Origin: a virus
Taxonomy: Duplodnaviria; Caudoviricetes
Virus record (IMG/VR): IMGVR_UViG_3300025372_000014
Location: 1-64,000 of that record
Length of the DNA: 64,000 nt
Strand: one strand, 5' to 3'
Made by a program: the position numbers and the translations under genes. The notes beneath the pieces are model-generated. The model had not been told where the DNA came from and made no database searches. It saw only the letters and a list, made by a program, of their open reading frames with translations. Of this stretch, positions 10,840-28,420 are shown piece by piece. Position 1 is the stretch's first letter; the number at the start of each line of letters is the position of its first letter.

Positions 10840-11337
10840 ATGAAGATTTGCGCTAACTGTCAAAGGAGTTTTTCATCTTGTTGTAAAATAGATGGAGTAA
10901 AAAAGAATTTGGGTGCAAGAAAGTTTTGTTTAGAATGCTCACCTTGGGGGCAGCACAATACACGAAGCATAGGTAAAAGAAAAAACTGCGTAATCTGTTC
11001 AAAAAAATTAGAAGGCAATCAAACTATTTATTGTTCTAGATCATGTACCATGAAAAAAGCCGGTAGATGGTATAAACAACAAAAAGATCGTGCTATACAG
11101 AGAAAGAAAGATCTCGTTAATCAGTTGGGTGGAAAATGTAGCAAATGTGATTACAATAAAAATTTGGCGGCATTAGATTTTCATCATTTAGACCCATCTA
11201 AAAAGGAGACGCCAATGAATCTAAGCTTTTTATTAAAGATGAATTGGGAAAAATGTCTCAAGGAAGTATCTAAATGTATTTTGCTTTGTGCTAATTGTCA
11301 TCGAGAACATCATAATCCGCAATATGAAAATTGGTAG
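10840..11337 (+). CDS. HNH endonuclease with N-terminal zinc fingers
   Basis: Several CxxC; LGGKCSKC..ALDFHH..KCILLCANCHREHH. Confidence 0.9.
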   Translation: MKICANCQRSFSSCCKIDGVKKNLGARKFCLECSPWGQHNTRSIGKRKNCVICSKKLEGNQTIYCSRSCTMKKAGRWYKQQKDRAIQRKKDLVNQLGGKCSKCDYNKNLAALDFHHLDPSKKETPMNLSFLLKMNWEKCLKEVSKCILLCANCHREHHNPQYENW

Positions 11338-11424
11338 TCCTAGAAGGATTCGAACCTTCACCACGCAGGCGTCTCCCCGCTTACACTGTATAAGAGTGCC
11401 GTTCTGCCGTTAAACTATAGGACT
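11332..11424 (-). tRNA. tRNA-Ile (UAU) with ~23-nt variable arm
   Basis: AGTCCTA/TAGGACT-ACCA; anticodon arm GCACT-CTTATAC-AGTGT; GAAGG-TTCGAAT-CCTTC. Confidence 0.82.
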
Positions 11425-11526
11425 ATATTCGTTTATTATATAGTAGTTTTGGGCTATAGTCTAGTTTAAACTTAAAGTTTTGTATTAATCATTACTAATT
11501 GAATAAAAATCCATAGCCTCAGTATT

Positions 11527-11727
11527 CTAGTACGAATCTTCGACATCTTCTTGACAGAGATGACAGCGGAAGATTGAATTGAGCGGATTCGTACGGTCTT
11601 CTTTAATTATAAAAAGATCTAAACTTCCGTCAAGTACTTGCTCGCCACAGTATGTAGTGTCGCAGTCTCTGCAGTAGAAACGCATGTCTTCAGTGACGCC
11701 TTTAGGTGATAGTATAGCAGCGCTCAT
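11527..11727 (-). CDS. small zinc-finger protein
   Basis: CRDC...CHLC. Confidence 0.6.
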   Translation of the reverse strand: MSAAILSPKGVTEDMRFYCRDCDTTYCGEQVLDGSLDLFIIKEDRTNPLNSIFRCHLCQEDVEDSY

Positions 11728-11939
11728 TGTAATTCGTGTATGTTTGTTTCTTCTATGGTTTCTTTGATTCGGTAGTATTCACTGATATGTGGAACATCTT
11801 TATAGTTCAGATGAAATTCGTCTTGTTTGTATAGTTCACGGGCCCTATCTTCAGCATCCTGTCTATTGCTATACTGACAAGAGTACCGGTCTGACCACTT
11901 GCGTCGATTGTAAACTTCTATAGTAAAGTATCTAGTCAT
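11724..11939 (-). CDS. hypothetical protein
   Basis: ORF overlapping the next gene by 4 nt. Confidence 0.6.
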   Translation of the reverse strand: MTRYFTIEVYNRRKWSDRYSCQYSNRQDAEDRARELYKQDEFHLNYKDVPHISEYYRIKETIEETNIHELQ

Positions 11940-11940
11940 A

Positions 11941-12135
11941 TTATTTCCAAGTGAAGACTGACATGGTTGGTCTATTGGTATTAGGAATCATATAGCTTGC
12001 ATACCCTCTCTTAATCGCTTCCTCTTGCAGGGGAGTAACATTGAAGTATTGCATTGAGCATAGTGCAATAAATCCTCCAATAAGCAAACCAATAAAGGTT
12101 GCTCCAACCATGTCGGTGTCGTCGTATGGTCTCAT
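11941..12135 (-). CDS. small membrane protein
   Basis: One hydrophobic segment; start moved to ATG 12135. Confidence 0.6.
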   Translation of the reverse strand: MRPYDDTDMVGATFIGLLIGGFIALCSMQYFNVTPLQEEAIKRGYASYMIPNTNRPTMSVFTWK

Positions 12136-12136
12136 A

Positions 12137-12439
12137 TTAAGAAACGATTCCGGTAGTTGTACCATCTGGATTGTGCGCGATAATCAAGCTATTAGCAAAC
12201 CCACGCATAATGCATCGCGGTTGTCGCTTTTGCTCATGACTCTCTACATCAAGGCCAATTGTTTTGATTTTATTTACAATGCGGCACGAACCTTCCCAGT
12301 GGATGGTTATGACATTCCTGCCCTGCTTGTGGGCTAACGGCTTATTGTAGTGGTAAAAGAAACGTTTGGGCTTAGGAGTTTTAATTCCATACTGCCATTC
12401 TTTAATAGCCTGTTCTTTAGAGATAGTGGGAGTTTTCAT
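12137..12439 (-). CDS. conserved phage hypothetical protein
   Basis: RFFYHYNKP..ITIHW...QPR.IMRG; TTGACA-17-TATAGT-7-ATG fixes the start at 12439. Confidence 0.7.
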   Translation of the reverse strand: MKTPTISKEQAIKEWQYGIKTPKPKRFFYHYNKPLAHKQGRNVITIHWEGSCRIVNKIKTIGLDVESHEQKRQPRCIMRGFANSLIIAHNPDGTTTGIVS

Positions 12440-12631
12440 GACCCTTACTATATGACTAGTTGGCCAGTGTGTCAAAGGAATTCTACAATTTGTTCATGTA
12501 AACGAAAGGCGACTTTCTATACATGTCAATGATCATATACAAAGAATCTTTATTTGTGTAAGCTTTTGATTATTAGAGATTTACGGCGCCGGGCTCCGCC
12601 GGGCGATATAACCTATTGATACCGAGGGGTT

Positions 12632-12705
12632 TCGGAGTGACAGGATTCGAACCTGCGACTTCTTGCTCCCAAAGCAAGCGCACTACCAAGCTGTGCTACA
12701 CTCCG
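12632..12705 (-). tRNA. tRNA-Pro (UGG)
   Basis: CGGAGTG acceptor; loop TTTGGGA. Confidence 0.92.
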
Positions 12706-12769
12706 TTAAAACCTTTACACGGAAATGCCGCCCTCGATACCCCTATCGAGGACGGCTATCCCCTATCCC

Positions 12770-13627
12770 TTATTTTCTCCGTGCGACAAACCTTCCCTTA
12801 TTGTCCCTGACATTGTGATAATGGTCGCCATTAGGCTTGACACCATAGTCCTCGTAGTCGTTGTAGTCGTCCTCCTCATTCTCGTCCTCATCCTCATCAT
12901 AGCCATCGTAGTAGCTATCGGGAAGCGGAGCGTCGAATGTACCGACAACCTCGTACCGAGAAGTACGCATCTTCTGGAAGTCGCAATCGTGAGGAACGCT
13001 GACCACATCAGCAGGATCAACCTTGACGATCACGACCCGACGATCACCACTACCAAAATTGGTAGCATACTCAAGCGAACCGACATGGAAGCCATAACTG
13101 CAACCCATGTTAGCATCGTCGCAAACCGAGTTGCGAGGCATTGATAGAACCTCACCAACCTTATTGCTGAACTTGCCAGAGTAGTGATCCATCCAGTCAG
13201 AACGGACGCTCTTATAGCCGAGGAAACAACCATCTGGCGTGATGGGCATATTTCCATGCTCAAGGAACGAGTAGAGTTCCGTAACACTACGCCGAGATGG
13301 ATTCTGCATCAGTCTGGTAAGAAACTTAACCAGAGGAGTAGGCGAGATTCCCTCCTTGATAAAAGCCAAAATCTTTTCCACGATGGTTCCATGCACCACT
13401 TCACCATTGAAGTAGACATGACCATTAACAACTTCGACACTACCCTCCGACCAATCGGAGACTACACTTGCCGTGTCGATGAGATCAAGGAGTTCCTGTT
13501 CGGTAACTCCCTGCTTGACTGCTTCGATAACACGACCCCAATTCTCATGCGAACTCTGTATCGTGTACGGAGTGCCGTTGAGGATTGCGGTAAGCGAGTT
13601 ATCAGTTAGGATGTATGGGATGTTCAT
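12770..13627 (-). CDS. rIIB: RIIB-like protein
   Basis: NPS..SVTELYSFL..PITPDGCFLGYK..VLSMPRNSVCDD..GCSYGFHVGS.EYA..VKVDPADVVSVP.D..KMR; downstream of rIIA. Confidence 0.9.
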   Translation of the reverse strand: MNIPYILTDNSLTAILNGTPYTIQSSHENWGRVIEAVKQGVTEQELLDLIDTASVVSDWSEGSVEVVNGHVYFNGEVVHGTIVEKILAFIKEGISPTPLVKFLTRLMQNPSRRSVTELYSFLEHGNMPITPDGCFLGYKSVRSDWMDHYSGKFSNKVGEVLSMPRNSVCDDANMGCSYGFHVGSLEYATNFGSGDRRVVIVKVDPADVVSVPHDCDFQKMRTSRYEVVGTFDAPLPDSYYDGYDEDEDENEEDDYNDYEDYGVKPNGDHYHNVRDNKGRFVARRK

Positions 13628-13820
13628 AACTCCCTCATCATCTACTTTTTTGCATAGGGTGACAAGATATTTTTACAAGAAAAATACGAATAGTCATAAG
13701 TCATTCGCTATCAACAAGTTACGGCACCGGGCCCCGCCCGGCGATGTTAGTAATATTAAATGAGTTGGGGATGGAGCCACACCACATAGCTCCACCCCCG
13801 TTCCCTCACCACAACAATCT

Positions 13821-16049
13821 TTAAGCGTTGAAGTAGCTTGCTATGACCTTGAAGAACTGGTCACTACCACCCCAACGGAAGTTTCTCTCTTCGATATAAG
13901 GAAGCAGAGGAAACCTAGCCTCAAACGCTTTGACACGACCAGCAATATCATTAGCAATCTTGGTAGCGTTATCGTTCTTCTTAACATTCTTGCCTTGGTC
14001 AAGACGATCAATCTTATCCATCATGGTAAGAGCAACCTGCTCCTTGGCTTTAGAGTTGTTATCGTTATTACGAGAGTTGATGCAAGCAAACAAGTCTTGT
14101 AGTGTCTTGCGATCATCGTCACTCTTGATGAGAGACAAGATCAAGTCTTGATGCTTTCTGTCTGTCATACGATAGAACGCAGAACCATTAAGCATCATGC
14201 AACCCAAACGATAGGCAAGCAACTTGTCGATGTCGATTGCGTTAGCAGAGATGTAGTTATCAAACTCTTCACGCATCTTATCCTCAACGCTAACCCATCC
14301 GCTACCAATCTTATTCTTGAGTTGACCACCTGTGAACCCAACAATAGTAGCAGGGTTAATCGTCTTGAATGGGGCAACTAATTCCTTGAGAGTGCTATTA
14401 CCGATTCTTTCACCATTAAGAACTGCTTGATAGTTATTGATCTGGATATAGATACCCGAACCAGTCTTTTGATCGACCGCACAATCCTTCCAAGAGCTAC
14501 GATCCCTCCAAGAGTTAATGCTAGGGTCGAGCATTAAAGCACCAGTACGCTTTGCCTTGGTAGTAGTGAACGATGCGGTATTGGTAGGCAGGGTAATCGT
14601 AGATGCAAACATGAAGTCCTCATCAGCAAACCCATTAGCCTTCTTGAGATCAGCAATCTCTGTAGCATATTGAGCATACTCCGTAGGCTTGAGAACCTTT
14701 GTGACTTCAACAGCACCCTGCTTCTCTACCTTCTGCATGGTCAACAGATAGACGCTCTCCTTATTAGATGCTTGGGAGGCAAGGTAACGACCATACCTAG
14801 CACCAGAGTTGTAATGCCCAAGGTCATTAAAAACTAATTTAATGTCATGCCTAGCTTGGAACTCGTTCATGTTGGTAGTCTGGATATTACCATTCCAGTT
14901 CTGACGATACCGCATCATGTGGAAGCGTAGCGTCTTGGTAGCGTCACGCTTTGTGATGTCAACATTATCAGAGGTGATAACCTTGCCGTTAAAGGTGATC
15001 TTTTTAACGATGTTACGGATGTGATAGAAACCGCTAACCATATTGTCCAACTCGGACATGAACTTTTTAGCAGAGTATTCGCTCTTGGCAGAGGCATTGA
15101 TCTGTTTCTGAATGTCATCCACCAGCACCTTGATGATCTCTCCTGCCTTCGTCTTGATATTGCCAATAGTCCTGTCGGTGTATTGCAAACCCTCACGACT
15201 TGCCGCAACATCCAAGTCACCGATACCAAAATCGACGACGATTGAACTATTGAACAAGTAACTGATCTGTGTGTCGAGATCATTACCAGCAACAAACTTT
15301 AATGCACTTCTGTCGATAGGGTATGCGATGTTACCCATGACTGCCATCGGGCGATTGTCCTCTAGGTTTTCATAAAAAGCCCAACCCCTGCCAGTAGAGA
15401 TAGGCTTGGCAAAAACCTTATCATACTCTGCCTTGTCCATGCCGATAATTTCGGGACGAACCTTAAAGAATCGGAGGTAACGCTTAACAGCCTTGGTGAA
15501 GTAGTTGGAGTCCTCGCCCTTAACTGGAATGACGATCTCTACACCATTCTCTTCCGTAGTGTCCTTGGTAGATAGCAGGGCAATCTGACCGATACCGCTA
15601 GGGTCGATGAAGGCATTATAGGAACGAACTTTGCCTTCGGTAAAGCTATTGATAACAAAGTTGTCACCATAAGCAAAAGCACTCTTTGAGCCTAGACCCA
15701 ACTGACCGATAAAAGCGTTGCTCTGACGCTTCGTGCTTTCTCCATAGAAGCAGTAGATGTCTTGAATGTCCTGCTCGGAAAGTCCACGACCAAAATCACG
15801 GATCTTGAAAACCTTTGACAAGGGACTAGGCATCGTGATCTTGATAGCAGTATTAGGCTTGCCAGCTTCGACATTAGCATCGTAGGCATTGGCAGAGTAT
15901 TCACGCACGACAGCACCGATCTTGTCGGTGTAAAGCTGATTGCGTAGAACATTGAAGATATGGGCGAGTCCAGTATCTTTGATGCCGAAACTGACGGCAG
16001 ACTTAATTCCCTTGGATTCTAGCGAGTTATATGTAGTGTTTTGGATCAT
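13821..16049 (-). CDS. rIIA: RIIA-like protein (GHKL ATPase N-terminal domain)
   Basis: LY..K..AVVREYSANAYDA, IRDFGRGL, YGESTK, IGQLGLGSKSAFAY; start set by the TTGTCA-17-TATTAT promoter. Confidence 0.9.
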   Translation of the reverse strand: MIQNTTYNSLESKGIKSAVSFGIKDTGLAHIFNVLRNQLYTDKIGAVVREYSANAYDANVEAGKPNTAIKITMPSPLSKVFKIRDFGRGLSEQDIQDIYCFYGESTKRQSNAFIGQLGLGSKSAFAYGDNFVINSFTEGKVRSYNAFIDPSGIGQIALLSTKDTTEENGVEIVIPVKGEDSNYFTKAVKRYLRFFKVRPEIIGMDKAEYDKVFAKPISTGRGWAFYENLEDNRPMAVMGNIAYPIDRSALKFVAGNDLDTQISYLFNSSIVVDFGIGDLDVAASREGLQYTDRTIGNIKTKAGEIIKVLVDDIQKQINASAKSEYSAKKFMSELDNMVSGFYHIRNIVKKITFNGKVITSDNVDITKRDATKTLRFHMMRYRQNWNGNIQTTNMNEFQARHDIKLVFNDLGHYNSGARYGRYLASQASNKESVYLLTMQKVEKQGAVEVTKVLKPTEYAQYATEIADLKKANGFADEDFMFASTITLPTNTASFTTTKAKRTGALMLDPSINSWRDRSSWKDCAVDQKTGSGIYIQINNYQAVLNGERIGNSTLKELVAPFKTINPATIVGFTGGQLKNKIGSGWVSVEDKMREEFDNYISANAIDIDKLLAYRLGCMMLNGSAFYRMTDRKHQDLILSLIKSDDDRKTLQDLFACINSRNNDNNSKAKEQVALTMMDKIDRLDQGKNVKKNDNATKIANDIAGRVKAFEARFPLLPYIEERNFRWGGSDQFFKVIASYFNA

Positions 16050-16199
16050 GGTGTTAGTAGTGTTGTGTGAGCCTTCATAATAGACTTTCTTGTATGGCAT
16101 GACAAGAATTATTTTCACAATTTTACAGGTATCTCTAAGTTGTTGAAAAGGAATGACTTACAGCGCCGGGCCCCGCCGGGCTAAAGGAGGGCCCATAAA

Positions 16200-16232
16200 C
16201 CAAAAAGAGCCCCCCAGTAAAGGAGGGCCCTT
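16200..16232 (-). terminator. probable intrinsic terminator
   Basis: GC-rich hairpin followed by a U-tract on the minus strand, after the peptide ORF. Confidence 0.55.
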
Positions 16233-16254
16233 ATCCCAGCCTCAAAGGAGGCCC

Positions 16255-16398
16255 CTAGTACCGATGCTTGTGAGTAGAAGCTCCAACTGAATGGTGTGAG
16301 CGACCGCTAGAAGAACTATGCTTCCACCCTGCGGCTTGCGCTCCAGAAACGCTCACGAAAAAGATTGCGGTAATGACGGCTAGGATTGTTTTATTCAT
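16255..16398 (-). CDS. secreted His/Ser/Gly-rich peptide (WKHS type), absent from the ORF track
   Basis: MNKTILAVITAIFFVSVSGAQA|AGWKHSSSSGRSHHSVGASTHKHRY; paralog at 27636-27791. Confidence 0.75.
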   Translation of the reverse strand: MNKTILAVITAIFFVSVSGAQAAGWKHSSSSGRSHHSVGASTHKHRY

Positions 16399-16564
16399 TG
16401 GTTGTGTATAGGTTGTATTTGTAGTTTTCTATTTTTCCATTGTTAAACATACGATAGTGCCAGTTACCATGGGTAACATCCATCATGTGTCCGAACAACA
16501 GAGAGTTCTTTGGATTATATTCATATCCAAATAGATTAAGGAGGAATGTGATGGGGTCTTTCAT
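16391..16564 (-). CDS. 57-aa hypothetical protein, absent from the ORF track
   Basis: MKDPITFLLNLFGY...YTTNE; stop overlaps the start of the peptide ORF. Confidence 0.6.
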   Translation of the reverse strand: MKDPITFLLNLFGYEYNPKNSLLFGHMMDVTHGNWHYRMFNNGKIENYKYNLYTTNE

Positions 16565-16589
16565 ATTTATAGTTTGTGGGTTTTTGTTT

Positions 16590-16849
16590 GGGACTGCAAG
16601 AAAATTGTCCCTGCCACTCCGTCGAGTGCTACCCCCAGATGAATCTCTTCACGCTGGGGTTGGTGACTGCACGATACGATTGCAGAACACACAGGGGGTT
16701 TTGCTCTCTGCTTTTAGCCCAGTTAATTATGCTGGACGCCGACTTGAGACGGTTAACTTCAAACGATCATTTGTCGCCTGCAAATTAGTAGCATTACAAA
16801 TTATTAAAGAGCTTCCTAGGTTGTGTCTTTAGAACTGCTAGGCCAGTCC
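16590..16849 (-). ncRNA. putative structured RNA or long structured leader, family unknown
   Basis: TTGACA-17-TACTAT promoter immediately upstream; 5' GGACUG pairs with 3' CAGUCC; at least five internal hairpins. Confidence 0.6.
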
Positions 16850-16868
16850 TTGTATTGTTATAGTAAAT

Positions 16869-17123
16869 CTATTTGCCCTCTGTGTCAACAGGTGTTTCAA
16901 AAAAACTAGAGTCCAATCCAAAATAGGAAAATAGCTCCCATAACTTCTCCTGTGCTATCTCCAAGCCTTTAACCGCATCAAAATCTTCAGTAGTTTTTAT
17001 TTCATCTTCCAAATAGTTTTGCATATTAATACAGACGGCGCGCCACTTCTGTCCATTTAAACAATCGGTCATTGGGACTTCCTCTTTGGGTAGAGAATAT
17101 TTAATATTAACTTCCATAGCCAT
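16869..17123 (-). CDS. conserved small phage protein
   Basis: Resembles 808-1032 (xLPxEE...NG.KW). Confidence 0.65.
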   Translation of the reverse strand: MAMEVNIKYSLPKEEVPMTDCLNGQKWRAVCINMQNYLEDEIKTTEDFDAVKGLEIAQEKLWELFSYFGLDSSFFETPVDTEGK

Positions 17124-17508
17124 AATAGGGATTTACGAATGCCAAATCCAATAAATAGGTTGGAGATTTACTAGCCAAATTCCCCTTAATAGCTGTATTA
17201 GCTAGCCCGATTTCCCCTAAATAGGGATTTACGCCCGATATCCCCCTAAATAGCTTTTTGGGAATACCCCTGTCCCCTTATATCAGAAACTAATATCATT
17301 TCTGTAGTACTAACTGGATGGATTGTTTGTATTTCCACTATATATTAGTATATCACTATTTGGACAGCTTGTCAAGCCATGTATCTATCTGGTAATCAAC
17401 GACTTACGAGACCGGGCCCCGCCCGGTGGGCGTTGTCTTACAAGTGATCAGTTAGGTAAGCGCATATAATTAAACCTACGGTAATTAGAGGGACTAGGTA
17501 TCGCATTT

Positions 17509-17718
17509 TCATTTTGCGTCCTCCGATCCGCCAAACATCTGATCCCACTCCTCGCCCGTGATGCCCGTCTTGTAGAACTCACGCTCGTCGGCGTTGAGGT
17601 TAGGGAAGGCGTTCTGTAGAAGCGCGCCGTTGGCGTAGGCTTCGACTTGAGCCTCGGTGATGTCGAGGTCGAGGGTGCGGGTGATCTGGGTGAAGGGAGA
17701 GGTACGGGTTACTTTCAT
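17509..17718 (-). CDS. conserved small phage protein at the repeat-polarity switch
   Basis: LLQNAFPNLNADEREF.KTGIT.EEW; leaderless promoter. Confidence 0.8.
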   Translation of the reverse strand: MKVTRTSPFTQITRTLDLDITEAQVEAYANGALLQNAFPNLNADEREFYKTGITGEEWDQMFGGSEDAK

Positions 17719-17890
17719 ATGATCATCATACTATAATTTGTCCCTAGCACAACAAAAAAAATGCATGAATAAAAATTAATTTATTAAAAAAAGCTTGACA
17801 TACCACTTGTCTTACTGTATACTACCGGGCGGGGCCCGGCGCTGTAAACCCTTGAGAATCAGTAACTTACACAAGCCAGAATCGTGTCAA

Positions 17891-17926
17891 GCAAAAACCG
17901 CCCCCTATGTTAGTAGAGGGCGGCTG
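17891..17926 (-). terminator. intrinsic terminator
   Basis: GCCGCCCTCTA..TAGGGGGCGG followed by TTTTT, downstream of the DUF932 gene. Confidence 0.7.
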
Positions 17927-17941
17927 ATGTTAGGCTAGATG

Positions 17942-18730
17942 TTAGGCCTCGACTAGAACCGCATCTTGAGCCTCCACGACTTGCTGGGCCGCGATCCCTG
18001 CGAGAGGGTCGAGCAGTGCGTGTAGAGCGTCCGACCTGCGAGGCAGTGCCATCGCATTACCGCGCAGGACATTGGTGAAGGCGTTGTGCAAGCCCCAGAG
18101 GTTGCGCTCGGAACCCCAGACATCGTGTTCGGGTTCGTGCCACTGGGCGACCACATCCGCAAGCGCAGTCTTGGAAACCGCGCCGCAACGGAAGGCCTTC
18201 ACGATGATGTCGTGGGCATCCTTGTCGGCAATCGCGCAGGACTGATAAGCCTCGACGCGCTTTGCATGGTTGCCCCATGCGCTAGTGAGCTTGCCGAATG
18301 CGCCAGCGAGGAGCATCGGAAGATCGCGCAGGATGAACTTTGTGTGACGACGAGCGATCTTGATCTCGTTGTGGAACGCGAGGTTATCGCAGACGAAAGG
18401 CGCGGAGCCAGCGTTGATGCCAGCAGGGAATGACTTGTCGTGCGAGTTACGCAAACCGATGACAGTCCCGACAGTCTCGGCAAGCGAGAAGTTAGGGATT
18501 CCAGCGACTTGGAAAAGTCCAAAGTAGCGTTGACCATCACGAGCGAGAGCGTGACGCTCCTGCACGATTTCAAGGCCAGCGGTTGCGACAGTCTCGCGCA
18601 AGCCTTCAATGATGCGCGAGTGAGGGATCGGATGCCACGACTCCGTGGCGTTAGGGGTGATGGAGTTGGCGACTTGCTCGGAAGAAACTTCGTGGCCGCC
18701 GCAGTGTAGTGTGAGGTTCAGTGTTTTCAT
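17942..18730 (-). CDS. DUF932/DUF945-family protein
   Basis: WHPIPH, GLRNSHDKS, FVCDNL, RRHT, LWGLHNAFT motifs. Confidence 0.8.
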   Translation of the reverse strand: MKTLNLTLHCGGHEVSSEQVANSITPNATESWHPIPHSRIIEGLRETVATAGLEIVQERHALARDGQRYFGLFQVAGIPNFSLAETVGTVIGLRNSHDKSFPAGINAGSAPFVCDNLAFHNEIKIARRHTKFILRDLPMLLAGAFGKLTSAWGNHAKRVEAYQSCAIADKDAHDIIVKAFRCGAVSKTALADVVAQWHEPEHDVWGSERNLWGLHNAFTNVLRGNAMALPRRSDALHALLDPLAGIAAQQVVEAQDAVLVEA

Positions 18731-19135
18731 TGAGCCTTCATCATCCATCTTTTTGGCGTTCGGTACAATACCTTTTTTACAATTTTGTGCGATTTTTTTG
18801 TATAAAGCGCGCTTGACATTCGTTCGTTTATATAAAGCAAAATGGCTTTTACTTTAGACAACCCACAGAGCCAGTATTTATGCGGCTCCGCGGCCTATTT
18901 GATCTGTAGCCGGTGGCCCACCCGTAGAGCCAGTATCTATGCGCCTGTGCAGTTGTCTTACAAGCCGCCGGGCGGGGCCGGGCGCCGTAACCCGTTGATA
19001 TTCAGCAAGTTACAGCGATTGGTGGTTGGGATGTTATATTAGCGCATTTTGTTTTCCTTTTTTATTTGTTTTTATTATAGTGAATTGCGATAGCCACTAA
19101 CAAGCATATTAGTAGAAAAGTCATGGCTCGTCACG

Positions 19136-19825
19136 TTAAACGGTTTCCGGTTGTAGGACAAAGCCTGACTCGTCCTTTTTCCCCTTGCCCTTGGCGACAA
19201 GTCCGACGATCACGCCCCTTGCATCTTTGAAGCGAAGGTCGGTGTCATCACCATTGACCACGGGCTTTCCGAGATAGGTTTCGGGAAGTTTACCAGCGAA
19301 CACGGCGGCGATGTTACCGCCTAGCTTTGCGATGATCTCAACCACGCTCTGATTGTTTTCTTTGCGTGAGAAAGTCAAGTGGTAGTTGGCAGGCAACTCG
19401 CCACGAAGGAAAGCAAGCATCCGCTTGGGATTGGGCGTGTAGTCGTAGAACATCACTTCAGGGAAGGTGTTCATCTCAATCAGATTTTCCCATGGAAGAT
19501 CAGAGAGAACATTCAACCGCACAGCAAGTTTCATGTTTTTCTTTTTTGCGTTCTTAATCGCAAGAGAGATTTCCTTTTTTAATTGTGCAAGGAAAGCGTC
19601 CTTCTGTTCAATGAAGTAACGAGACTTTTTTAGTCGTGCCTCTTGAACATTAGAAAACACGCCCATGCCCGAAGTGTTGAGGCAGGCGGCGGCACAGCCT
19701 TCCGAAGCGTGAGAGCAAAAGTTTTTGCCGGAGAGATTATAGGGAAGGAGAGACAAGCCAAGCGTGAGCCAGCCGAGTTTTTCGCCTTTGCGGATTTTAG
19801 TGTTGTTGGGTGATAGGAGTTTCAT
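19136..19825 (-). CDS. gp88-like phage protein (Cys cluster, radical-SAM-like)
   Basis: CSHASEGCAAACL, VRLNVLSD, FYDYT, NYHLTFS, GDDTDLRF.D, VGLVAKG. Confidence 0.8.
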   Translation of the reverse strand: MKLLSPNNTKIRKGEKLGWLTLGLSLLPYNLSGKNFCSHASEGCAAACLNTSGMGVFSNVQEARLKKSRYFIEQKDAFLAQLKKEISLAIKNAKKKNMKLAVRLNVLSDLPWENLIEMNTFPEVMFYDYTPNPKRMLAFLRGELPANYHLTFSRKENNQSVVEIIAKLGGNIAAVFAGKLPETYLGKPVVNGDDTDLRFKDARGVIVGLVAKGKGKKDESGFVLQPETV

Positions 19826-19866
19826 GGTTCTATGATTTTGATTATTTTTTGCGATAGTGTCAACGA

Positions 19867-20373
19867 TCAATTTTCTGGATCCCAGTCATTTGATCCTTCA
19901 CGAATTAGATGTCCTTCTGGCACACGATCCGTTGCCCATCCCATAAAGTTTTCCCTAGTGATTCCGTCGAGCGTATCCTTTGCCGCTTGCATGGCATCAG
20001 CTTTGAACTTTTCAGCCTTGCCCTTGTATTGCTTGCTCACAGGAGAATCTTGCCAGAGACGGATATTCTCCCATGTAAGACCACGCACGATGTCCTCCGA
20101 TGTCGTGAGAAAGTAGGCGAAGCTCTCGCCGATGTAGTGAAGGAAACCATCTCCGAGCGTTTGTCCGTTGCTTACCCATCCTCCCTCGTCGTCAATGTTG
20201 CTTGTGACATTTGCACCAGCGATACCAAGGTTGAAGTAGCGATTGAAAGAGCGTTCGATCTGTTGGCGAGTGCCAGAAAGACCGAAAGCCAATCCGTTGC
20301 CATAGGATGAAATCGCTTCAGAGGCGAAGGCGTTGAGGGTTGCGTTAGGGGTTTGGGTGTTGTTGTTTGTCAT
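19867..20373 (-). CDS. hypothetical protein
   Basis: 168-aa ORF; TTGCAA-17-TAGTTT-6-ATG. Confidence 0.75.
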   Translation of the reverse strand: MTNNNTQTPNATLNAFASEAISSYGNGLAFGLSGTRQQIERSFNRYFNLGIAGANVTSNIDDEGGWVSNGQTLGDGFLHYIGESFAYFLTTSEDIVRGLTWENIRLWQDSPVSKQYKGKAEKFKADAMQAAKDTLDGITRENFMGWATDRVPEGHLIREGSNDWDPEN

Positions 20374-20605
20374 GGTTCAAAACTATCCGATGCCGTCTCG
20401 AATTGCAAAATCTTTTTTCATTTTGGCGAAACTTTTTTTGTGCGAAACTTGTTGACAGCCGTAGAGCTAGTGTTTATGCGGCTCCGTGGACTAGTTCGTC
20501 TACGGGTGGGTGGGTATCCGTACAGCCCCATTCTATGCGGCTCCGCGAGGGGTGGGCAACCCGCCGGGCGGGGCCCGGTCACGTAAGTCATTGATTTGTA
20601 GTAAC

Positions 20606-21037
20606 TTAGAATGATTGCGTCTCTCTAAGGTATGTTAGGCGATTATTGGATATTAAGTAACTCTCTTCTAGCCTCTGAAGTGGACGATTTAATCCAGTAT
20701 CATAAATTGATCCGTTTATGATAGCAAAAGCGTGACGATTAGTTGCAACATAGTAGCGACCAGTTGGGTTCTCTTTAATGAACCTCTGAATGGTGATACT
20801 TTTGTAACGCTTTTTTTTGTATGTTATGCCGTACTCCTTTTTGGCATATTTAAGTAATTTTTCTGGATCAAAACCATGACCATTTTTTCTGCCAGCTTCA
20901 ACGCCTATCTTGTGAGCATACTCGTAAGGTATGCCAGCACTTGCCGCCAATGCACGAATCGTGCAGTCTCTAAACTCTCTGATTCCAGACCTTGCTCTTC
21001 CAGCGTCAGAGCAGATTGTTCGTGATTTTAAATCCAT
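20606..21037 (-). CDS. conserved phage protein (DCTIRALA...HAFAI..G..YD)
   Basis: Cys/His/Asp motif pattern, possibly a papain-like fold. Confidence 0.7.
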   Translation of the reverse strand: MDLKSRTICSDAGRARSGIREFRDCTIRALAASAGIPYEYAHKIGVEAGRKNGHGFDPEKLLKYAKKEYGITYKKKRYKSITIQRFIKENPTGRYYVATNRHAFAIINGSIYDTGLNRPLQRLEESYLISNNRLTYLRETQSF

Positions 21038-21146
21038 TTTTATTTGAGAAGAAAGTTGGAGCCCATGCGAGTGTTTTACGACATCCTTTTAACTCGCACA
21101 CCCAATGAAGTCGAGGTGCTAGCGGGACTTTGCTAGATGATTGCAA

Positions 21147-21419
21147 CTAGGCGATCAACTCAAAGCGGTTGATGCGATCCAAGCGGAACCTGCGGATGTC
21201 ATCCACAGCAGGGACATAGCAAGTGATTCCCTCACCAGCAGGATTGTTCACTCCACGATCCTCCTTGTAGAAGAACTTCCCGAAAGGACGGGAAACTTGA
21301 TACTCCTTCGGCTCAAAACCATTCGTCGCCGCCGAGTAGACGATGCGATAGGTTCTGCACAAGCCGAGCTTGTAAGCGAGTTTCGTGAAGAGGAGGTTGA
21401 GACGGATTGCGGTTTTCAT
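21147..21419 (-). CDS. stand-alone WYL-like domain protein
   Basis: N-terminal RIVY and C-terminal IRRFRLDRI. Confidence 0.6.
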   Translation of the reverse strand: MKTAIRLNLLFTKLAYKLGLCRTYRIVYSAATNGFEPKEYQVSRPFGKFFYKEDRGVNNPAGEGITCYVPAVDDIRRFRLDRINRFELIA

Positions 21420-21481
21420 GGTAGTGTTGTTTTTGTTTTGTTGTTTCTGTATTTTGATTATTAAAAATTTTGGGTGATGTG

Positions 21482-21691
21482 TCAAGAGACAATCTTGATA
21501 TTTTTTGCGGCTCTGTATGCCGAGATCATCTCACCGATGCGGTTACGACTGGACTTGGTGAAGTAACTATTAACTCCCCAGTTGGCTTTGATGTTCTTGT
21601 GAGCTTTGACTTCGCTCTGAATTGCAATCGCCAGATAGGCACGGATGTTGCAGACATTGGTGAAGTTGAGTGTGGTGTTCTTATTTTTCAT
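21482..21691 (-). CDS. hypothetical protein
   Basis: Leaderless promoter; resembles 23859-24050. Confidence 0.65.
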   Translation of the reverse strand: MKNKNTTLNFTNVCNIRAYLAIAIQSEVKAHKNIKANWGVNSYFTKSSRNRIGEMISAYRAAKNIKIVS

Positions 21692-21927
21692 ACTTCTAGT
21701 ATAAGCAGACTTCGCAGAAAAAACGAGAAAAATCGTATGGCTAGATGAAATTATTTTTATTGAAATCGCTTGACAGCCCTAGCCCTAGTATTTATGCCGC
21801 TCCAAGCTATATTCGTCTACAGGCAGGGGGTCGGCTCTAGAGCCAGTGTTCATGCGCCTCTACAGATGATCACCGGCTGACCGGGCGGGACCCGGCGCCG
21901 TAACCCCTTGGTTATCAGCGCTTTACA

Positions 21928-22194
21928 TTAATCGGTCATTTTAGTGACGAAAACAGGAGTATATTCACCCATGTAAGCACCAGCGATGTTAAATTCAAAG
22001 AATTCCCATGCTTCATCTCTATCCATTCCTTCGGACATTAGCTTGGTGATAATTTTATTGGTATCGTAAGCAATCACAGATGGGCGACCAGCTTGCGAGG
22101 TAAAACCAATGATGCAGTCATCATACCCATCGGCCTTCAGAACATTTTCGTCAAGGCATTCTAGGAGATCGTCAAGATCAATTTTAGAACTCAT
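21928..22194 (-). CDS. conserved acidic phage protein
   Basis: ADGYDDCIIG..AYD..EA.EFFEFNI.GAY.GE.TP. Confidence 0.75.
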   Translation of the reverse strand: MSSKIDLDDLLECLDENVLKADGYDDCIIGFTSQAGRPSVIAYDTNKIITKLMSEGMDRDEAWEFFEFNIAGAYMGEYTPVFVTKMTD

Positions 22195-23521
22195 AGCCGC
22201 CTCCTATGTCGTTCCTGTCTTCAACAGAAGAATCTAGATATTGGTCTGGCTCTACTTCGTCCATGCTTCTAGGCGTGTGACCTAGTTCATGCTCCTCCAT
22301 GTAGTATTCTGGCTCGTTGCTGTTATCGGGGTCGTTGGGGTCTTGCATAATCTGATTAAAATGTTTTTTGGTTATGGTGTCAAGCGTTGATCGTGGCGCA
22401 GAACTCTCTGAATCCACGCACGATGTGTGAGATATCGCCGGTAGTGCTACAGAGTGCATCGGCAATGCTTATCGCACAATCACGCTCAAGCTGAAGCTGA
22501 AGCAATTTCTTCATCACTTCTCGCTTAGTAACTCCGGCAGTAGACTCTTCAAGAGCATCCAGCATTAGATCAAAGTCCATTTTAGTAAAATTCTTTTTGA
22601 TCATTTTATTTAATTCCTAACTGACTGAGTTTCTTTTTGAATACCGCATCTTGGATTTTCTGCCAGCCTTCCTCTTGGAATGGCGTTTGCGCGAGGGACT
22701 CATCATTCCAATGAAACGATGGGATGCCCCAAGAATTAGCCTCATAGGTTGCGGCACTATGCTTAACGGCAAGGTGTCGCCAAACTAAAGAGGTGGCGAG
22801 TGAGTCGATCACGCAGAAGGTGATGGCGACGATGGACATGACTAGGATGTTGCGCGTGGTGTTGTTCATTATTGTGTTTATTTAGGGTTAGTTTAACTGA
22901 TAGCCGTAGTTGATACCAAGAGAATCTTCTCTCTCAAGATCACCGATCTGCTCCTCCCATCCAGCGATGTCGTCCTGCAAGGTCTCTAGTGACTGCTGAC
23001 GAATGATGTAGAGAGGATGTTCTGGAAAAAGCATCGACATCTGCTTTTCGATTGCCGCGATCTCTTTTTCCGCTTGTGCAATTTTTTTGTTCAGTTTGGG
23101 GATGAGGTAGTGCATAGAGTAATTAAAAAGAATTTTTATTGTTCAGTCAAGCTTTCCGAGATTTTTCCATTCTCTTCTTGGCTTTAAGCTCCTCAAAAGA
23201 ACTTACGCCATTTTTTTCATATAGCTCCTCAAGACCTTCTTTCGCACCTTCACGAATTGCGGTGATAATCTCAAAAAGAAAACCGGCAACCTTGAAAAGA
23301 ATCCAAAGGGCGACAGAGACGAATACGATGGTTTCAGCGATGTGTAGTATGGTGTTCATAAAGTAATTAAAATGTTTTTTTATTGTTCAGTCAACCCAAA
23401 TGTTCGGATTGCCATGCTCTTTGACGATAGCCTCCAACTCATCAAGCCAAGCCTCGTACTCGGAGGCGTAAGCGGCGAGATCGTCAACTGCGGTTTCTTT
23501 AGGGTCGAGTAGTAGTTCCAT
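22184..23521 (-). other. cassette of six small hypothetical ORFs (22184-22348, 22380-22604, 22606-22869, 22888-23115, 23147-23359, 23387-23521)
   Basis: Tightly packed co-oriented ORFs, two with TM segments; duplicated TTGACT-17-TTTAAT promoters. Confidence 0.65.
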
Positions 23522-23858
23522 GATTAGAGAATACCATAAAAAGAGTTTTGTGCAATAATTATTTATAAAAAAATTTCGACCGAATGGGAGAAAACGATTG
23601 ACAGCCTGCAGGCCCAGTGTTTATGCGGCTCCGCGGCCTACTTCATCTACAGCCGGTAGGCTAGCCTCAGAGCCAGTATCTGTGCGGCTCCGCGAGGGGT
23701 GACCGACCCGCCGGGCGGGACCGGGCGCTGTAAGTCGTTGATTTTGAGTTACTTACGAAAAAGGGATATGATGAGCAATGTTAGTGGATAAAAGTAGGTA
23801 AAAGCCGCCAAGATTACGCCAGAGATTGCTAGGATGTTATCAATCATATTATTAGATG

Positions 23859-24896
23859 TTAAAGCGCACGAATTTCGCGCAGTGCGGAGATATTTTCCTT
23901 GATTTCGTTAGTCCAGAAGTCCACGGAGCTAACATGGCGAATCTGTTGCGCATTTCGACGACTTTGCCACGATTTAGCGATGAGAGATCGGATGGCAACA
24001 CGGGCAGTGAATTTGGTTGAAGTGGAGAGAGTTTTTTGTGTGTTTTTCATATTGTTAGTTATTTGGTTAGTTGTGATGTTATTATGGGCGAGATTGGATG
24101 CCTTCTCTGACGGCTTTTATAGCCTTGCCAGTAGCCTCGTATTCGTCCTTGATGGGAGAGTCACGATAGACCGCAGATAACATGAGCAGATAATGCTCCA
24201 TGATTTTAGCGGCTTCAATGATCTGTTTGTCGGAGTAAGGAGAGATGTTTCTCATGATAGTTATAGGGTTAGGGTTAGAGGGATTGAGCAAAGCGAACCT
24301 TTGCCATGTTGTAGTACTTAACGCCAGACCATTTCGGGTCTTTGTACTGCTCACGGAAGCTGTCCCTAGTTTCTTGGTAGCGTTCGCTCATCTCACGAAG
24401 AGTGAACCAGCGACCAGCGGTGAAAGTGGGATCGGTCATCCCATAGTTTGTACCGAGGAAGGTGTGAATCTTGATCTCGTACTCGCCATCATTCCAGCGA
24501 GTGTCGGAGATCAGTTCTTGAACTCCTGCGCCTCCCCAGTTGATGATGAGTGCCATCCCGATGTTCGGGGTGAAGCTAGGAGTGAAAGTGACAGGCGAAG
24601 TGGTGATTGAGTTGTTCATATTTTTATTTCCTTTATTTTGTATGCTACTAGTGTATCAGAAACCTTTCCGAAAAGCAACGCTAGAGTTGTGGTTGAGTGT
24701 TGTTCGGGGCGACACATCCTGTCCCGATTTTGCGCTTCACCCAATGAGTGTTTGGGCAAGGCTTGCCGATGGTTGCGGAGCCTACTGGATACCACGCCCT
24801 TTCCCATCCGACGATTTGACCGACCAGATCGCCCTCTTGGACGATTTCGCCTGTGTTGAGTGTCCTGTAGTTGTTGAGGTTTTCTTTATCTTTCAT
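23859..24896 (-). other. cassette of small hypothetical ORFs (23859-24050, 24082-24255, 24275-24619, 24681-24896)
   Basis: Co-oriented ORFs between repeat copies 11 and 12. Confidence 0.6.
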
Positions 24897-25118
24897 GCTA
24901 TAAGCGTATCACAGGTCATGCAAAAATGCGACAAAAATCGTTCGGTTACCTACGGGTCATCACGACACATCCTGTCACCGCGTACCCAGAGTGTTAACAT
25001 TCATCTACAGCCCATGCCCTGCCTGTAGAGCTAGTGTTTATGCGGCTCCAGCGTTGTCTTACAACCCGCCGGGGGGAGCCGGGCGCTGTAAGCTGTTCTC
25101 TGTCAACAACTTATGCTT

Positions 25119-25502
25119 TTACTCTTTCACTGCTACTAACATCCCATGAATACCATTCCGATTTGCCTCTAGAATTGTGTCTACATTATCATCAATGTGT
25201 AGAACACTATTTAACATCTGTAAATGTGGAAGTTTTGCTTCACCTTTTGTCGCAATCATTCCAGTAATCGGAAGTTTATGATCCGCAACAAATTGCTGAA
25301 CCTCATGCATATGATCCCAGCTTCTGAAACTAACAATCCAGATATCATACCCATGCTTTGCCTTATCAAAGACAATTTCAAAGATTTCCTCTATAGGAGT
25401 TAACACTCCATTATCCAGATGCTCAATTGGATTTTCTGGATTCCAGACTCCATGAGTCTTTGCTAGTGTTTCGTCGAAGTCTACTGTGATTACTTTATTC
25501 AT
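25119..25502 (-). CDS. HAD-superfamily phosphatase-like protein
   Basis: Motif I VDFDETL, motif II IVS, motif IV HIDD. Confidence 0.75.
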   Translation of the reverse strand: MNKVITVDFDETLAKTHGVWNPENPIEHLDNGVLTPIEEIFEIVFDKAKHGYDIWIVSFRSWDHMHEVQQFVADHKLPITGMIATKGEAKLPHLQMLNSVLHIDDNVDTILEANRNGIHGMLVAVKE

Positions 25503-25899
25503 ATATTTTACTGGTTAAGATTGTCCTCTTTCAAATTCTTCTTTGCGATCTCTGCGGCGATCTTGTTCAGCCTCATCACCCTTTCCATGAGGGTTTCTGC
25601 TTTGATCGTTTGGTTGTTCTTATCTTTCATGGTTAAAGAATAGCATGGAGCCGCAAGAATTACAACAAAAAAATTCGCATGGGATAAACTTTTTTTTATA
25701 AAAAATGCTTGACAATGGCATTGTCTTACACTATACTACCGGGCGGCGCCCGGCCTTGTAAGTGGTTGATTACCAACCCTTTCCGTACTTCTGTCGTCTT
25801 TTGTACAATTTTTTGCTTGACACGGCGCGTTGGACAGGCGCATACGGCTGTCTTACCTTGATGTCTTTCAGTTGTATTACAAAGCGTTCGGTTTTCATA

Positions 25900-26130
25900 T
25901 TATTCAGCAGGGCAGTTCTCCCAGTACCAGTCAGCATAGGAGAGTTTCCACTCTTCCTCGAATGCGATCATCTGCTCACCTGTGTAGGTGAAAGTCCGCA
26001 TCAGTTGACGCTTGATGATTCCCAAGTCGTACTCCTCAAAGCTCCTCTCAACAAGCGTTGAAAGCTCGCGGTCATTGATCGCGCGAAGCATGAGTTCCGA
26101 AGTGGTGTTGTGGGTGATGTCAATTTTCAT
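25900..26130 (-). CDS. hypothetical protein
   Basis: Start moved to ATG 26130. Confidence 0.55.
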   Translation of the reverse strand: MKIDITHNTTSELMLRAINDRELSTLVERSFEEYDLGIIKRQLMRTFTYTGEQMIAFEEEWKLSYADWYWENCPAE

Positions 26131-26620
26131 ATTCTGATTATGAGGGTTAAGGTTAATTTTGTAAAGCGTAAAAATTACTTTGCAGTAACTTTTTTCTGTG
26201 CTTGTTTCCAAGCATTCCAGCGGACTTTTCTGGCAGTCCAGATTCTGTTTTGACGCTCCCAGCGAGCGACTTCCCACTCTTGAGAAGTTTGATTGTTATT
26301 CTTATTGTTCATGCTGTAAGCATACCATGATGACCCGAAAAACACTACAAAAATCTTTCGGCTATCGCAGGTAGGAACGACACATCCTGTCAGTGTGTGC
26401 CCATAGTGTTAACATTCATCTACAGCCTATACCCTACCGCTAGAGCCAGTGTTTATGCGGGTCTACGGGTGGTGACCGGCTGACCGGGCGGGGCCCGGCG
26501 CCGTAAGTTGTTGATACTCAGGGCTTTATCTCTCTCATGATTCCTGCGATGTAAAATCGCCAATTCTTTGGCTTATGAACCAAACAATTTAGGTGAAGTG
26601 AGATGCGATAGAGGCTCATG

Positions 26621-26911
26621 TTAAGTGTTCTTGATTTTCATCTCTAATTGACGAATTTTTGCTTCAAGCTCTTTCGTATGCCTACGATAGAAAGCCAAGT
26701 CTTGCTCGTAAGTTTTAACCGCAAAAAGCAAGTTCTTGACTTGATCTTCTGCAGTTCCAGAGAGGATGATCGGATCGTCAAAGCGTTCCTTATTCATTCG
26801 CTTCTGTTCGGAATCCATGATGGCGGTCTGGATTCTATCGTGTCTAGCTTCTGGAGTTTCACCGCCACAGGTTACTTTGAAGCTACGGAGAGGGTATTTG
26901 TATGATCTCAT
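26621..26911 (-). CDS. hypothetical protein with C-terminal coiled coil
   Basis: 96-aa ORF. Confidence 0.6.
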   Translation of the reverse strand: MRSYKYPLRSFKVTCGGETPEARHDRIQTAIMDSEQKRMNKERFDDPIILSGTAEDQVKNLLFAVKTYEQDLAFYRRHTKELEAKIRQLEMKIKNT

Positions 26912-27635
26912 ATTCTTTATTTATTTTCGATGTGTTTGTTTATATTGTCAATCAGCTTTTCGTTAGCCTTTGCGTAGGCTTCCAGATTCCTTGCGAACGC
27001 TTCAAGGCGAGCTTTGAGAGGATTTTGTTTTGGGGCTTTTCTTCTTTTCATGCTTTCAATGTATCAGAGTGATTCCGTTTTGTCAACCGATTTTTTTTGT
27101 TTTTTTATTCTTCTTCTGGTTCAAACTCTGCCCATTCTCCGCAGTCCTTGCAGAGGGCAATGTAATCGTTCTGTTCCAGAACTGGTGAGAGTGGACTATT
27201 GGAAGCCCCACAGCAGTTGCTGACGAGCTTTGTTTCTTTGAGTGTTTCTTTATCTTTCATGCTATGAGCATAGCCCCAAACCGAAAAAATTACAACAAGT
27301 ATTTTTCATTTTGATAAACTTTTTTTTGACGATTTGGCTTGACAGTCAAGCCGCCGACTTGGTGTCTACCTTCATCCGCAGGCAGGGGGGTGTCTGTAGA
27401 GCTAGTGTTTATGCGGGTCTACGCTGTAAGACAAGCCGACCGGGCGGGGCCCGGCGCTGTAAGTGCTTGATGTTCAGCTACTTATCGCGTTGCCTTTGCC
27501 AGACTCTGGCATAGATGTTATATACGCGCTTTTCATACTCTGGATGTGAGCCTAACTTCACGCCTCGCCGACGCAGTATGTCGGCGAGGTGACGCTTGAG
27601 TTGTATCTGTTGGACTATTGTCATACAAGCGAGTA

Positions 27636-27791
27636 CTAGTGATGACGGCGTCCGCTTGTCCCCGCGTGACCGCCCGATACGCCTTTGTGTCCGTATCCAG
27701 ACAGGCCGCTATGCTTCCATGCGGCTTGAGAGCTAGGGGTGAAGATGGCGAGAGCTAGCACAACGAGGAGGAGGTGTTTGATGTGGTTCAT
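27636..27791 (-). CDS. secreted Gly/His-rich peptide (WKHS type)
   Basis: MNHIKHLLLVVLALAIFTPSSQA|AWKHSGLSGYGHKGVSGGHAGTSGRRHH. Confidence 0.75.
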   Translation of the reverse strand: MNHIKHLLLVVLALAIFTPSSQAAWKHSGLSGYGHKGVSGGHAGTSGRRHH

Positions 27792-27813
27792 GTGTGTGGT
27801 GTTTAGTGTGATT

Positions 27814-28420
27814 CTACTTTTTTTTGTATGCGATTGCAAGTGCTACGATTACGGAGGCGATGAGCAATTCCATTAGTGGTTACAGATCTGGTCAGCGTAG
27901 TAACAGATGCCGCCGAGGACGCAGAGGTTAGCGAAGGCGAGGAGTGCGATGATGTACTTCATATTACTTGGAGAGAACCTCAAGGGCGATGACGATGATG
28001 CCAACGGCAGAGAGCGAGAGCAAGCCGAAGGCGAGGAACGAGGCGATGATGAGGACTGATTCGATGTGGTGTTTCATTTGTTCTAGTGTGTTGTTTGTTG
28101 GTGAGTGTGTCAAGGTTAGAGTGACTGAAGGAAAGTCTTCACCTCAAGCAGGGCGTTGCTGATGTAGAAGCAAGCCTTCATGCGAAGCGTGTTCTGCTGT
28201 CTGGCATGGTAGCAAGACAGGTTGTAGAAGTTCTGTGAGAGGTTGAAGATTGTGGTGATCATGGTTAGAGTATGTGTGAATGTAGTGATTGTGTCAACGA
28301 TTATTTCTTGGGAATCCAGAAGCCCTCTTCCCAGAGACCGCGCTTGATCTCGGAGAGTTTCTTGAGTTGAATCCTACGGAGTTCGATGATCCTCTGTTTG
28401 GTGGTGTTCTTATTTTTCAT
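27814..28420 (-). other. run of tiny ORFs (27814-27873, 27873-27962, 27964-28077, 28116-28262, 28301-28420); the first three are hydrophobic
   Basis: Abutting or overlapping stop-start junctions; three tandem sigma70 promoters with ATG 6-7 nt after the -10 box. Confidence 0.6.

Follow-up and report, generated by a model that had tools for sequence, protein, structure and literature searches.

The closest described counterparts to the genes treated here fall into four groups. T4 Sp (Spackle, gp61.3) and Imm are early, envelope-located superinfection-exclusion proteins. Sp has a cleavable signal peptide and is periplasmic; it is a folded helical protein of about 75 amino acids (aa) that binds the gp5 lysozyme. 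In the arbitrium communication system, the peptide AimP is sensed by AimR, a receptor of about 380 aa with tetratricopeptide repeats (TPR) and a helix–turn–helix (HTH) domain. Binding of Cu or Zn is a property of the prion octarepeat, whose His residues are spaced about 8 apart, and of the His-rich N-terminal segments of Zn proteins in the periplasm. Finally, HxsA is the effector of the bacterial HXS anti-phage system; it is exported to the periplasm, and its tandem His-containing basic repeats are proposed to engage incoming phage DNA electrostatically and so block its entry (PMC13128918). HxsA is 214 aa long, carries a peptidoglycan-binding domain and needs the radical S-adenosylmethionine (rSAM) maturases HxsB and HxsC, plus HxsD (PMC13128918). 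Here, we describe two small genes, pep1 and pep2, located about 11 kb apart in the first 64,000 nucleotides (the window) of IMG/VR record IMGVR_UViG_3300025372_000014, an uncultured phage. They are genuine genes of a small phage-only family. Their predicted exported products are short, disordered and basic, with a regular spacing of His residues, and we tentatively propose that they act on the envelope of the infected cell.

Precursor Architecture

Both genes are on the minus strand. Translation gives a 47-aa pre-peptide for pep1 (16255..16398) and a 51-aa pre-peptide for pep2 (27636..27791). The sequence-only reading that first pointed to this pair placed both open reading frames (ORFs) correctly and gave no strand; the plus-strand reading of 16255-16398 and 27636-27791 is full of stops. 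The calls of signal peptides and cleavage sites throughout this work are rule-based (−3/−1 rule). By that rule, pep1 has a predicted signal peptide of 22 aa (16333-16398, minus strand) and a mature part of 25 aa (16258-16332, minus strand), followed by the stop codon (16255-16257, minus strand). The corresponding parts of pep2 are 23 aa (27723-27791, minus strand) and 28 aa (27639-27722, minus strand). The n-region is M-N-K in pep1 and M-N-H-I-K-H in pep2, the helix breaker is Gly in the former and Pro in the latter, and positions −3 to −1 are A-Q-A and S-Q-A, respectively. Each mature part has four Lys plus Arg, five His and no Asp or Glu. The earlier description of two Sec-type signal peptides ending in (A/S)QA, each followed by 25–28 basic, Gly/Ser/His-rich residues with nothing acidic among them, is thus accurate for both.

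The same layout is sustained across the family. The signal peptides are 21–24 aa long, with an h-region of 11–16 hydrophobic residues and then Gly or Pro. Position −1 is Ala in 12/12 sequences, −3 is Ala, Ser or Val, and −2 varies (Q, R, H, E). By rule, these are the n-, h- and c-regions and the small −3/−1 residues of a Sec substrate cleaved by signal peptidase I. No Cys and no n-region R-R occur in the window, P00xx or locus-derived family members, so that the precursors are neither lipoproteins nor substrates of twin-arginine translocation (Tat). A loose rule-based screen flagged 15 of the 597 ATG-initiated ORFs of 30–120 aa as having a signal peptide, pep1 and pep2 among them, and when all six frames of the complete 91,233-bp record were scanned, A(G)WKHS after a hydrophobic N-terminus turned up in these two ORFs only. 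That two of the 15 flagged ORFs have the same four-residue word right after the predicted cleavage site is therefore very unlikely to be due to chance. AlphaFold2, run with the family alignment, models pep2 as a helix over residues 2–17 with the rest as coil, at a mean predicted local distance difference test (pLDDT) score of 63 and 44–57 in the tail. The model fits a signal peptide followed by a disordered product.

The mature parts of the family are 25–35 aa long and Gly/Ser-rich. They contain 2–5 Lys/Arg, and acidic residues number one at most and are missing from the window peptides. Trp occupies mature position 2 (pep2 type) or 3 (pep1 type), and a His follows two residues after it. From there, His recurs at gaps of 7–8 residues in every member, with offsets from the Trp of +2, +10 and +17/18 in both types. 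We refer to this as the His ruler. The C-terminus is basic and His-rich and ends in His, with a terminal His pair in all members, and the His positions are among the most conserved columns of the alignment. The tail of pep2 amounts to three degenerate H-x-G-x-S-G-x-x units. The type found in the 138-kb IMG/VR record G001 has four, which accounts for its 7-residue insertion, and the ortholog P0006 has Tyr in place of the third His. The WKHS word itself, which the sequence-only reading had emphasized, is not the conserved determinant: orthologs read W-S-H-S, W-S-H-N and W-S-H-K, giving W-[K/S]-H-[S/K/N].

A ruler of this kind invites the explanation that the primary role of the peptides is periplasmic metal handling, that is, to buffer, scavenge or deliver Zn, Cu or Ni, for example, to protect against Cu or Zn stress or to starve or feed periplasmic metallo-enzymes, with no part in exclusion. 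The spacing of the His residues on Gly/Ser linkers, the invariable terminal pair and the conservation of the His columns are all as such a role would have them. The sole match of pep2 in the family libraries, a nonsignificant one, is the periplasmic zinc chaperone ZraP (E 3.9), and multi-His octarepeats and ZinT-/ZnuA-type His-rich segments bind these metals. The rest of the composition points the other way. The peptides offer neither acidic nor Cys/Met ligands, their positive net charge (+3 to +5) disfavors the binding of cations, and P0006 does without the third His. The amino-terminal Cu(II)- and Ni(II)-binding (ATCUN) motif has His at mature position 3, whereas canonical cleavage after A-x-A would put it at 4 in the pep2 type or 5 in the pep1 type. 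Nor was a metal transporter or metal-responsive element seen nearby, and a metal riboswitch, looked for in the RNA leader upstream of pep1, was not found there. We regard metal handling as unlikely to be the primary role, while taking it seriously as a candidate.

Selection, Distribution and Paralogy

Orthologs of the pep2 type occur on no fewer than seven different phage contigs from metagenomes. P0004-P0007 (80–100% identity) came from a word-indexed search, and P0008 and P0010 from a profile search run exhaustively over 1.84 billion representatives. Ortholog DNA was taken from IMG/VR (L002 and L003, the latter within G001) and from eight metagenome contigs (L008-L015). Over the seven distinct coding sequences, the ratio of nonsynonymous to synonymous substitution rates (dN/dS) by the Nei–Gojobori method (NG86) is 0.05–0.44 for the whole gene and 0–0.33 for the mature part. 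Between L002 and L008, the mature part differs by 10 synonymous and 0 nonsynonymous changes. It is clear that pep2 is a genuine gene under purifying selection. In pairs of the window type with the G001 type, dN is about 0.6–0.7 (up to 0.69) in the signal region vs. 0.13–0.34 in the mature part. A signal region that diverges faster is what one would predict if function resides in the exported product. In its C-terminal half, mature pep2 hardly differs between the window phage and G001, two phages with rIIA orthologs only 52% identical. The sequence-only reading would have been refuted by a lack of predicted cleavage or of homologs under purifying selection. Neither is the case: conserved rule-based sites occur in the family, and there are homologs on which such selection acts.

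For pep1, a search against 5.8 billion proteins returned a single homolog, P0003 (68% identity, E 1.3e-11). Trp and His occupy the same positions in the two, and the changes are mostly swaps of Ser with Thr and Lys with Arg. As a gene, pep1 is accordingly less secure than pep2. It is possible that 47-aa overlapping ORFs on other contigs are overlooked by gene callers.

The family was found in phages only. No relative of the peptides was found in 185,579 bacterial genomes. Pfam, NCBIfam and PHROGs gave no significant match, the best in Pfam and PHROGs being at E 0.046 or worse and lying over the signal-peptide region, and the ESM Atlas yielded no usable look-alike. A profile match to a 943-aa protein, P0009, was discarded as the unrelated translation of a tandem DNA repeat.

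The two genes had been called paralogs from the outset. This is plausible in that hhalign aligns the pep1 and pep2 subfamilies with a probability of 90% in a stretch of 16 columns that takes in the cleavage site and the first repeat, and that the His ruler is shared. The case weakens once composition is removed: when tested against shuffles that preserve composition, the resemblance of pep1 is limited to pep2 orthologs with the same W-K-H-S word (p about 0.003), and p is 0.07–0.5 for the others. The codons of pep1 and pep2 are identical across Q-A-A and W-K-H-S, with 9 + 11 identical bases around a 3-nt indel, which hints at common descent or local gene conversion. On balance, we consider paralogy likely but not proven. 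A third paralog was sought in an 87-aa ORF of the early region (22606-22869, minus strand), which is unrelated by hhalign (probability 0.7%). That ORF has a Sec-like signal peptide, Trp and His in the N-terminal segment of its mature part and acidic residues in its tail.

The weakness of this residual similarity also bears on whether one or both ORFs might be nonfunctional, either as chance ORFs or as decaying remnants of a duplication. That pep1 has a single known homolog, and that it is absent after the corresponding 57-aa gene in five related phages (see below), would fit such an origin. Chance and decay do not readily produce the selection and conserved synteny seen for pep2, the retention of the same His and Trp positions between pep1 and P0003 with conservative swaps elsewhere, or a pep1 start that overlaps the upstream stop and a gene end followed by a terminator. 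We find it very improbable that either ORF is nonfunctional.

The pep2 Micro-Gene Cassette

pep2 is the fifth gene in a tightly packed minus-strand run. Upstream of it are a 48-aa soluble ORF (28116-28262) and three transmembrane (TM) ORFs of 37 aa (27964-28077), 29 aa (27873-27962) and 19 aa (27814-27873). Directly 3' of it is a basic ORF of 48 aa (27478..27624) that is conserved in the closer relatives L002, L008 and L012. The run ends at a copy of a hairpin-palindrome element (27440..27486, plus strand), and L002 and L003 have the same element after their cassettes. The cassette is headed by a sigma-70-like promoter, TTGACA, 17 nt, CATACT (28269..28297, minus strand), called as a consensus match only (10/12 positions). 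The micro-gene set at 27814..28262 flanks every pep2 ortholog in L002, L008, L012, L003, L014 and L015, with minor gain, loss and reordering.

The cassette is modular. Comparing L003 9647-10222 with window 27636-28262, the 48-aa soluble ORF and the TTGACACACTCACCAAC promoter module are placed differently in the G001 type and the window type. The 29-aa TM ORF is missing from the L002 cassette, and a 20-aa TM ORF follows the peptide in the G001 type only.

The pep1 Transcription Unit

pep1 follows a 57-aa ORF (16391..16564, minus strand) that is conserved in related phages. The end of that ORF, stop codon included, and the start of pep1 share 8 nt, an overlap suggestive of translational coupling. 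Ahead of it is a structured 5' leader of about 289 nt (16565..16853, minus strand; minimum free energy −81.3 kcal/mol, z −2.78), and upstream of the leader is a sigma-70-like promoter, TTGACA, 17 nt, TACTAT (16860..16888, minus strand). This promoter is again a consensus match only, at 10/12 positions, and is predicted to drive a unit of leader RNA, 57-aa ORF and pep1. The earlier statement that one copy lies downstream of a structured RNA is thus true of the 47-aa gene, except that the 57-aa ORF intervenes. The leader has a match to twister-P1 (RF03160) at 16700-16800 (minus strand) of 29.7 bits (E 8.4e-5), with two loop insertions and below the gathering score of 67.2. The homologous leader of G001 (L020 2004-2065, minus strand) scores 45.3 bits (E 3e-9), likewise below the threshold of 67.2. 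Segments of the twister-like core are conserved between the window phage and G001, making the leader a candidate twister-like ribozyme located in a phage mRNA leader.

Directly after pep1 is an intrinsic-terminator-like hairpin with a T run (16205..16232, minus strand; 11 pairs, 7 of them G-C, tail TTTGGTTT). It separates pep1 from the next gene downstream, an rIIA homolog (13821..16118, minus strand; phrog_612, E 6.5e-107). The interval 16180-16255 (minus strand), between the pep1 stop and the hairpin element, contains three direct copies of GGGCC(C)TCCTTT. Each copy can form part of a hairpin, the middle one being the terminator-like stem.

The 57-aa gene is widespread, with ten homolog clusters at 58–88% identity. 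In G001 and L016-L019, it has no pep1-like follower; hence, pep1 is an insertion particular to one lineage, in a place where small envelope-directed genes are tolerated. No pep1-like gene was present upstream of rIIA or after the 57-aa gene in G001, L016-L019, G003 or G004. In G001, the slot after the 57-aa gene (L020 1290-1490, minus strand) has an unrelated small TM ORF of about 53–69 aa and then the same GC hairpin. This suggests that the slot is a hotspot for small envelope-directed genes.

The TM ORF in that slot, the run of 19–37-aa TM ORFs kept around pep2 in all relatives, and the position of pep1 next to rIIA could also be taken to mean that the N-terminus is never removed. Each product would then stay in the membrane as a bitopic micro-protein, its short basic tail in the periplasm, and would join the neighboring TM micro-proteins in a complex that might set the timing of lysis (antiholin-like) or be an ion channel or a transporter. 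It is true that the cleavage is a rule-based prediction. An uncleaved anchor, however, would have no use for the strictly conserved Ala at −1 and small residue at −3, with −2 left variable and a Gly/Pro helix breaker in front, which together are the signature of signal peptidase I. It would also not be expected to evolve faster than the tail that it anchors, as the signal region does between the window and G001 types. We therefore hold an uncleaved N-terminus to be improbable.

Genomic Setting

The full record is 91,233 bp, estimated by CheckV to be 60% complete. It contains tRNA genes, a terminase and the rIIA homolog, and a long plus-strand virion module starts at about 34 kb. The arm from 8 to 29 kb, in which pep1, pep2 and rIIA are located, has small minus-strand genes, sigma-70-like promoters and a repeated GC-hairpin element, and we read it as the early region. 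There is no nucleotide match between the record and cultured phages. The large terminase subunit (TerL) and rIIA have only distant relatives, at 23–31% identity, a distance that rules out assigning a host or taxon through TerL, rIIA or nucleotide matches.

Shine–Dalgarno sequences are nearly absent before the genes of the whole record, G000 (for example, those at 4853, 10840, 39217 and 47745), and many late genes have GTGTAAT 8–20 nt ahead of the ATG. Together, these hint at a host with Shine–Dalgarno-independent initiation. The repeated element combines a GC hairpin (CCGGGC-GGG-GCCCGG) with a GTAAG...CTTAC palindrome. About 17 copies occur over window 8100-27490, where they bound the early cassettes, and the element corresponds to repeat family D2, with 10 copies. 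Its orientation flips near 17.4–17.8 kb, where the genes remain on the minus strand. Near-perfect promoters (TTGACA, 17 nt, TATACT) stand on the plus strand directly before two copies of the element, antisense to the genes; the examples are at 17795-17823 (plus strand) and about 25707-25738 (plus strand).

The neighborhoods of the two genes and the general character of the phage bear on the possibility that the peptides serve communication, arbitrium-like or otherwise, between phages or between phage and host, and are sensed by a receptor. Signaling was among the roles first suggested for them, next to superinfection exclusion and metal scavenging, and AimP shares their layout of a secretion signal ahead of a short mature peptide. 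The same sequence-only reading had seen no AimR-like receptor, and that observation stands: the neighbors are ORFs of 19–57 aa and rIIA, so there is no adjacent gene of receptor size. Conservation extends over the whole 25–35-aa tail rather than a C-terminal hexapeptide. Short signal peptides of 21–24 aa with weakly charged n-regions are of the kind that we associate with diderm hosts, in which the product would be retained in the periplasm. The rIIA homolog and the virion-gene module suggest a lytic lifestyle, although no search was made for integrase or repressor genes. A signaling role is disfavored on these grounds, and we give it next to no credence.

Proposed Role

We propose that the peptides are envelope effectors. 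Expression would come from the sigma-70-like promoters of the early arm, pep2 being co-transcribed with the membrane micro-proteins of 19–37 aa and pep1 being expressed after the conserved 57-aa gene behind its structured leader. Sec export and cleavage by signal peptidase I would release a disordered product of 25–35 aa into the host periplasm. There it would act as a multivalent His/Lys/Arg ligand on an envelope target. Such multivalent binding is what the design points to: a product predicted to be exported by Sec, with a Trp close to its new N-terminus, four to six His side chains separated by flexible Gly/Ser stretches, and an excess of positive charge. Two binding chemistries are conceivable. 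One is metal-bridged: Zn, Cu or Ni would be chelated by several His side chains joined through flexible linkers, by analogy with the octarepeat-type and ZinT-/ZnuA-type segments. The other is electrostatic and pH-tunable, directed at anionic envelope components or at nucleic acid in transit, and for this one HxsA, with its proposed trapping of phage DNA, is a precedent. Acting with the membrane micro-proteins, the peptide would alter the envelope of the infected cell, most likely to exclude superinfecting phages, for example, by hindering DNA entry. Superinfection protection seems the most plausible purpose because the peptide would be placed early in the periplasm alongside membrane micro-proteins, as with T4 Sp and Imm. 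An envelope effector with a role in exclusion is the reading that we favor, tentatively and with somewhat less than even confidence.

Several points weigh against it. The predicted cleavage depends on the −3/−1 rule, and the word periplasm assumes a diderm host. The peptides have no sequence relationship in Pfam, NCBIfam or PHROGs to characterized exclusion proteins or metal-binding families. HxsA requires rSAM maturation and a peptidoglycan-binding domain, both of which are absent here. A disordered peptide of 3 kDa may be rapidly degraded in the periplasm. Finally, pep1 has its single known homolog, and the dN/dS estimates cover pep2 only. The probability not taken up by exclusion or by the alternatives weighed above belongs to readings that we did not consider.

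A bolder version of the proposal is that these are the first phage-encoded periplasmic micro-effectors: disordered periodic-His polycations of ~3 kDa that reach the host periplasm early in infection. Together with membrane micro-proteins of <40 aa, they would control whether the DNA of competing phages can enter, as a phage-borne counterpart of HxsA that needs no maturase, or else take over periplasmic metal homeostasis. We consider this version doubtful, with a real chance nonetheless of being right.

What the peptides mean for phage biology depends on whether they act in the periplasm. If they do, phages modify the envelope by means of disordered micro-peptides as well as folded proteins such as Spackle, and their simple design, in which a Trp anchor is followed by a His ruler and a basic tail, would offer a minimal tool, amenable to synthesis, for the study of superinfection exclusion or of metal chemistry in the periplasm. 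If they are inert, the gain is no more than an improved annotation of one clade of uncultured phages. Genes of <50 aa are routinely dropped from phage annotation, and here such genes are under selection and carry a clear sorting signal.

Comparison with Known Systems

With AimP, the two genes have in common a phage ORF of about 40–50 aa with an N-terminal secretion signal. They differ in lacking an adjacent AimR-type gene, in the conservation of the whole tail where AimP has its C-terminal hexapeptide, and in the type of phage that carries them.

The resemblance to flexible multi-His metal-binding segments (the prion octarepeat, histatin 5, and the His-rich N-termini and loops of ZinT and ZnuA) lies in His residues about 7–8 apart in a Gly-rich flexible chain with Trp and in a cationic, disordered character; ZinT and ZnuA, moreover, are periplasmic. 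The differences are that there is no homology to any of these and that the peptides here are without acidic or Met/Cys co-ligands and without ATCUN geometry.

HxsA is likewise an exported product with His-containing basic repeats, and pep1 includes two H-x-S triplets. HxsA, however, has five tandem H-x-S repeats plus a domain, whereas the units of pep2 are H-x-G-x-S-G and neither peptide has room for a domain. An NCBIfam scan of six family members at E up to 10 gave no match to an HxsA model. The radical-SAM family PF04055 was not found in the 91-kb record, which is about 60% complete; the same search was positive in 14/14 control genomes.

The likeness to T4 Sp and Imm is one of setting. Those proteins are phage-encoded, small and early, and the pep genes, too, are located among small membrane-protein genes in what we read as an early region. 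There is no sequence similarity and no PHROG match between them, and the products here are 25–35 aa, disordered, Gly/Ser/His-rich and polycationic. The peptides thus constitute a new, narrowly distributed family within a known kind, that of small envelope-directed early phage proteins, and their disordered design with periodic His residues is unusual.

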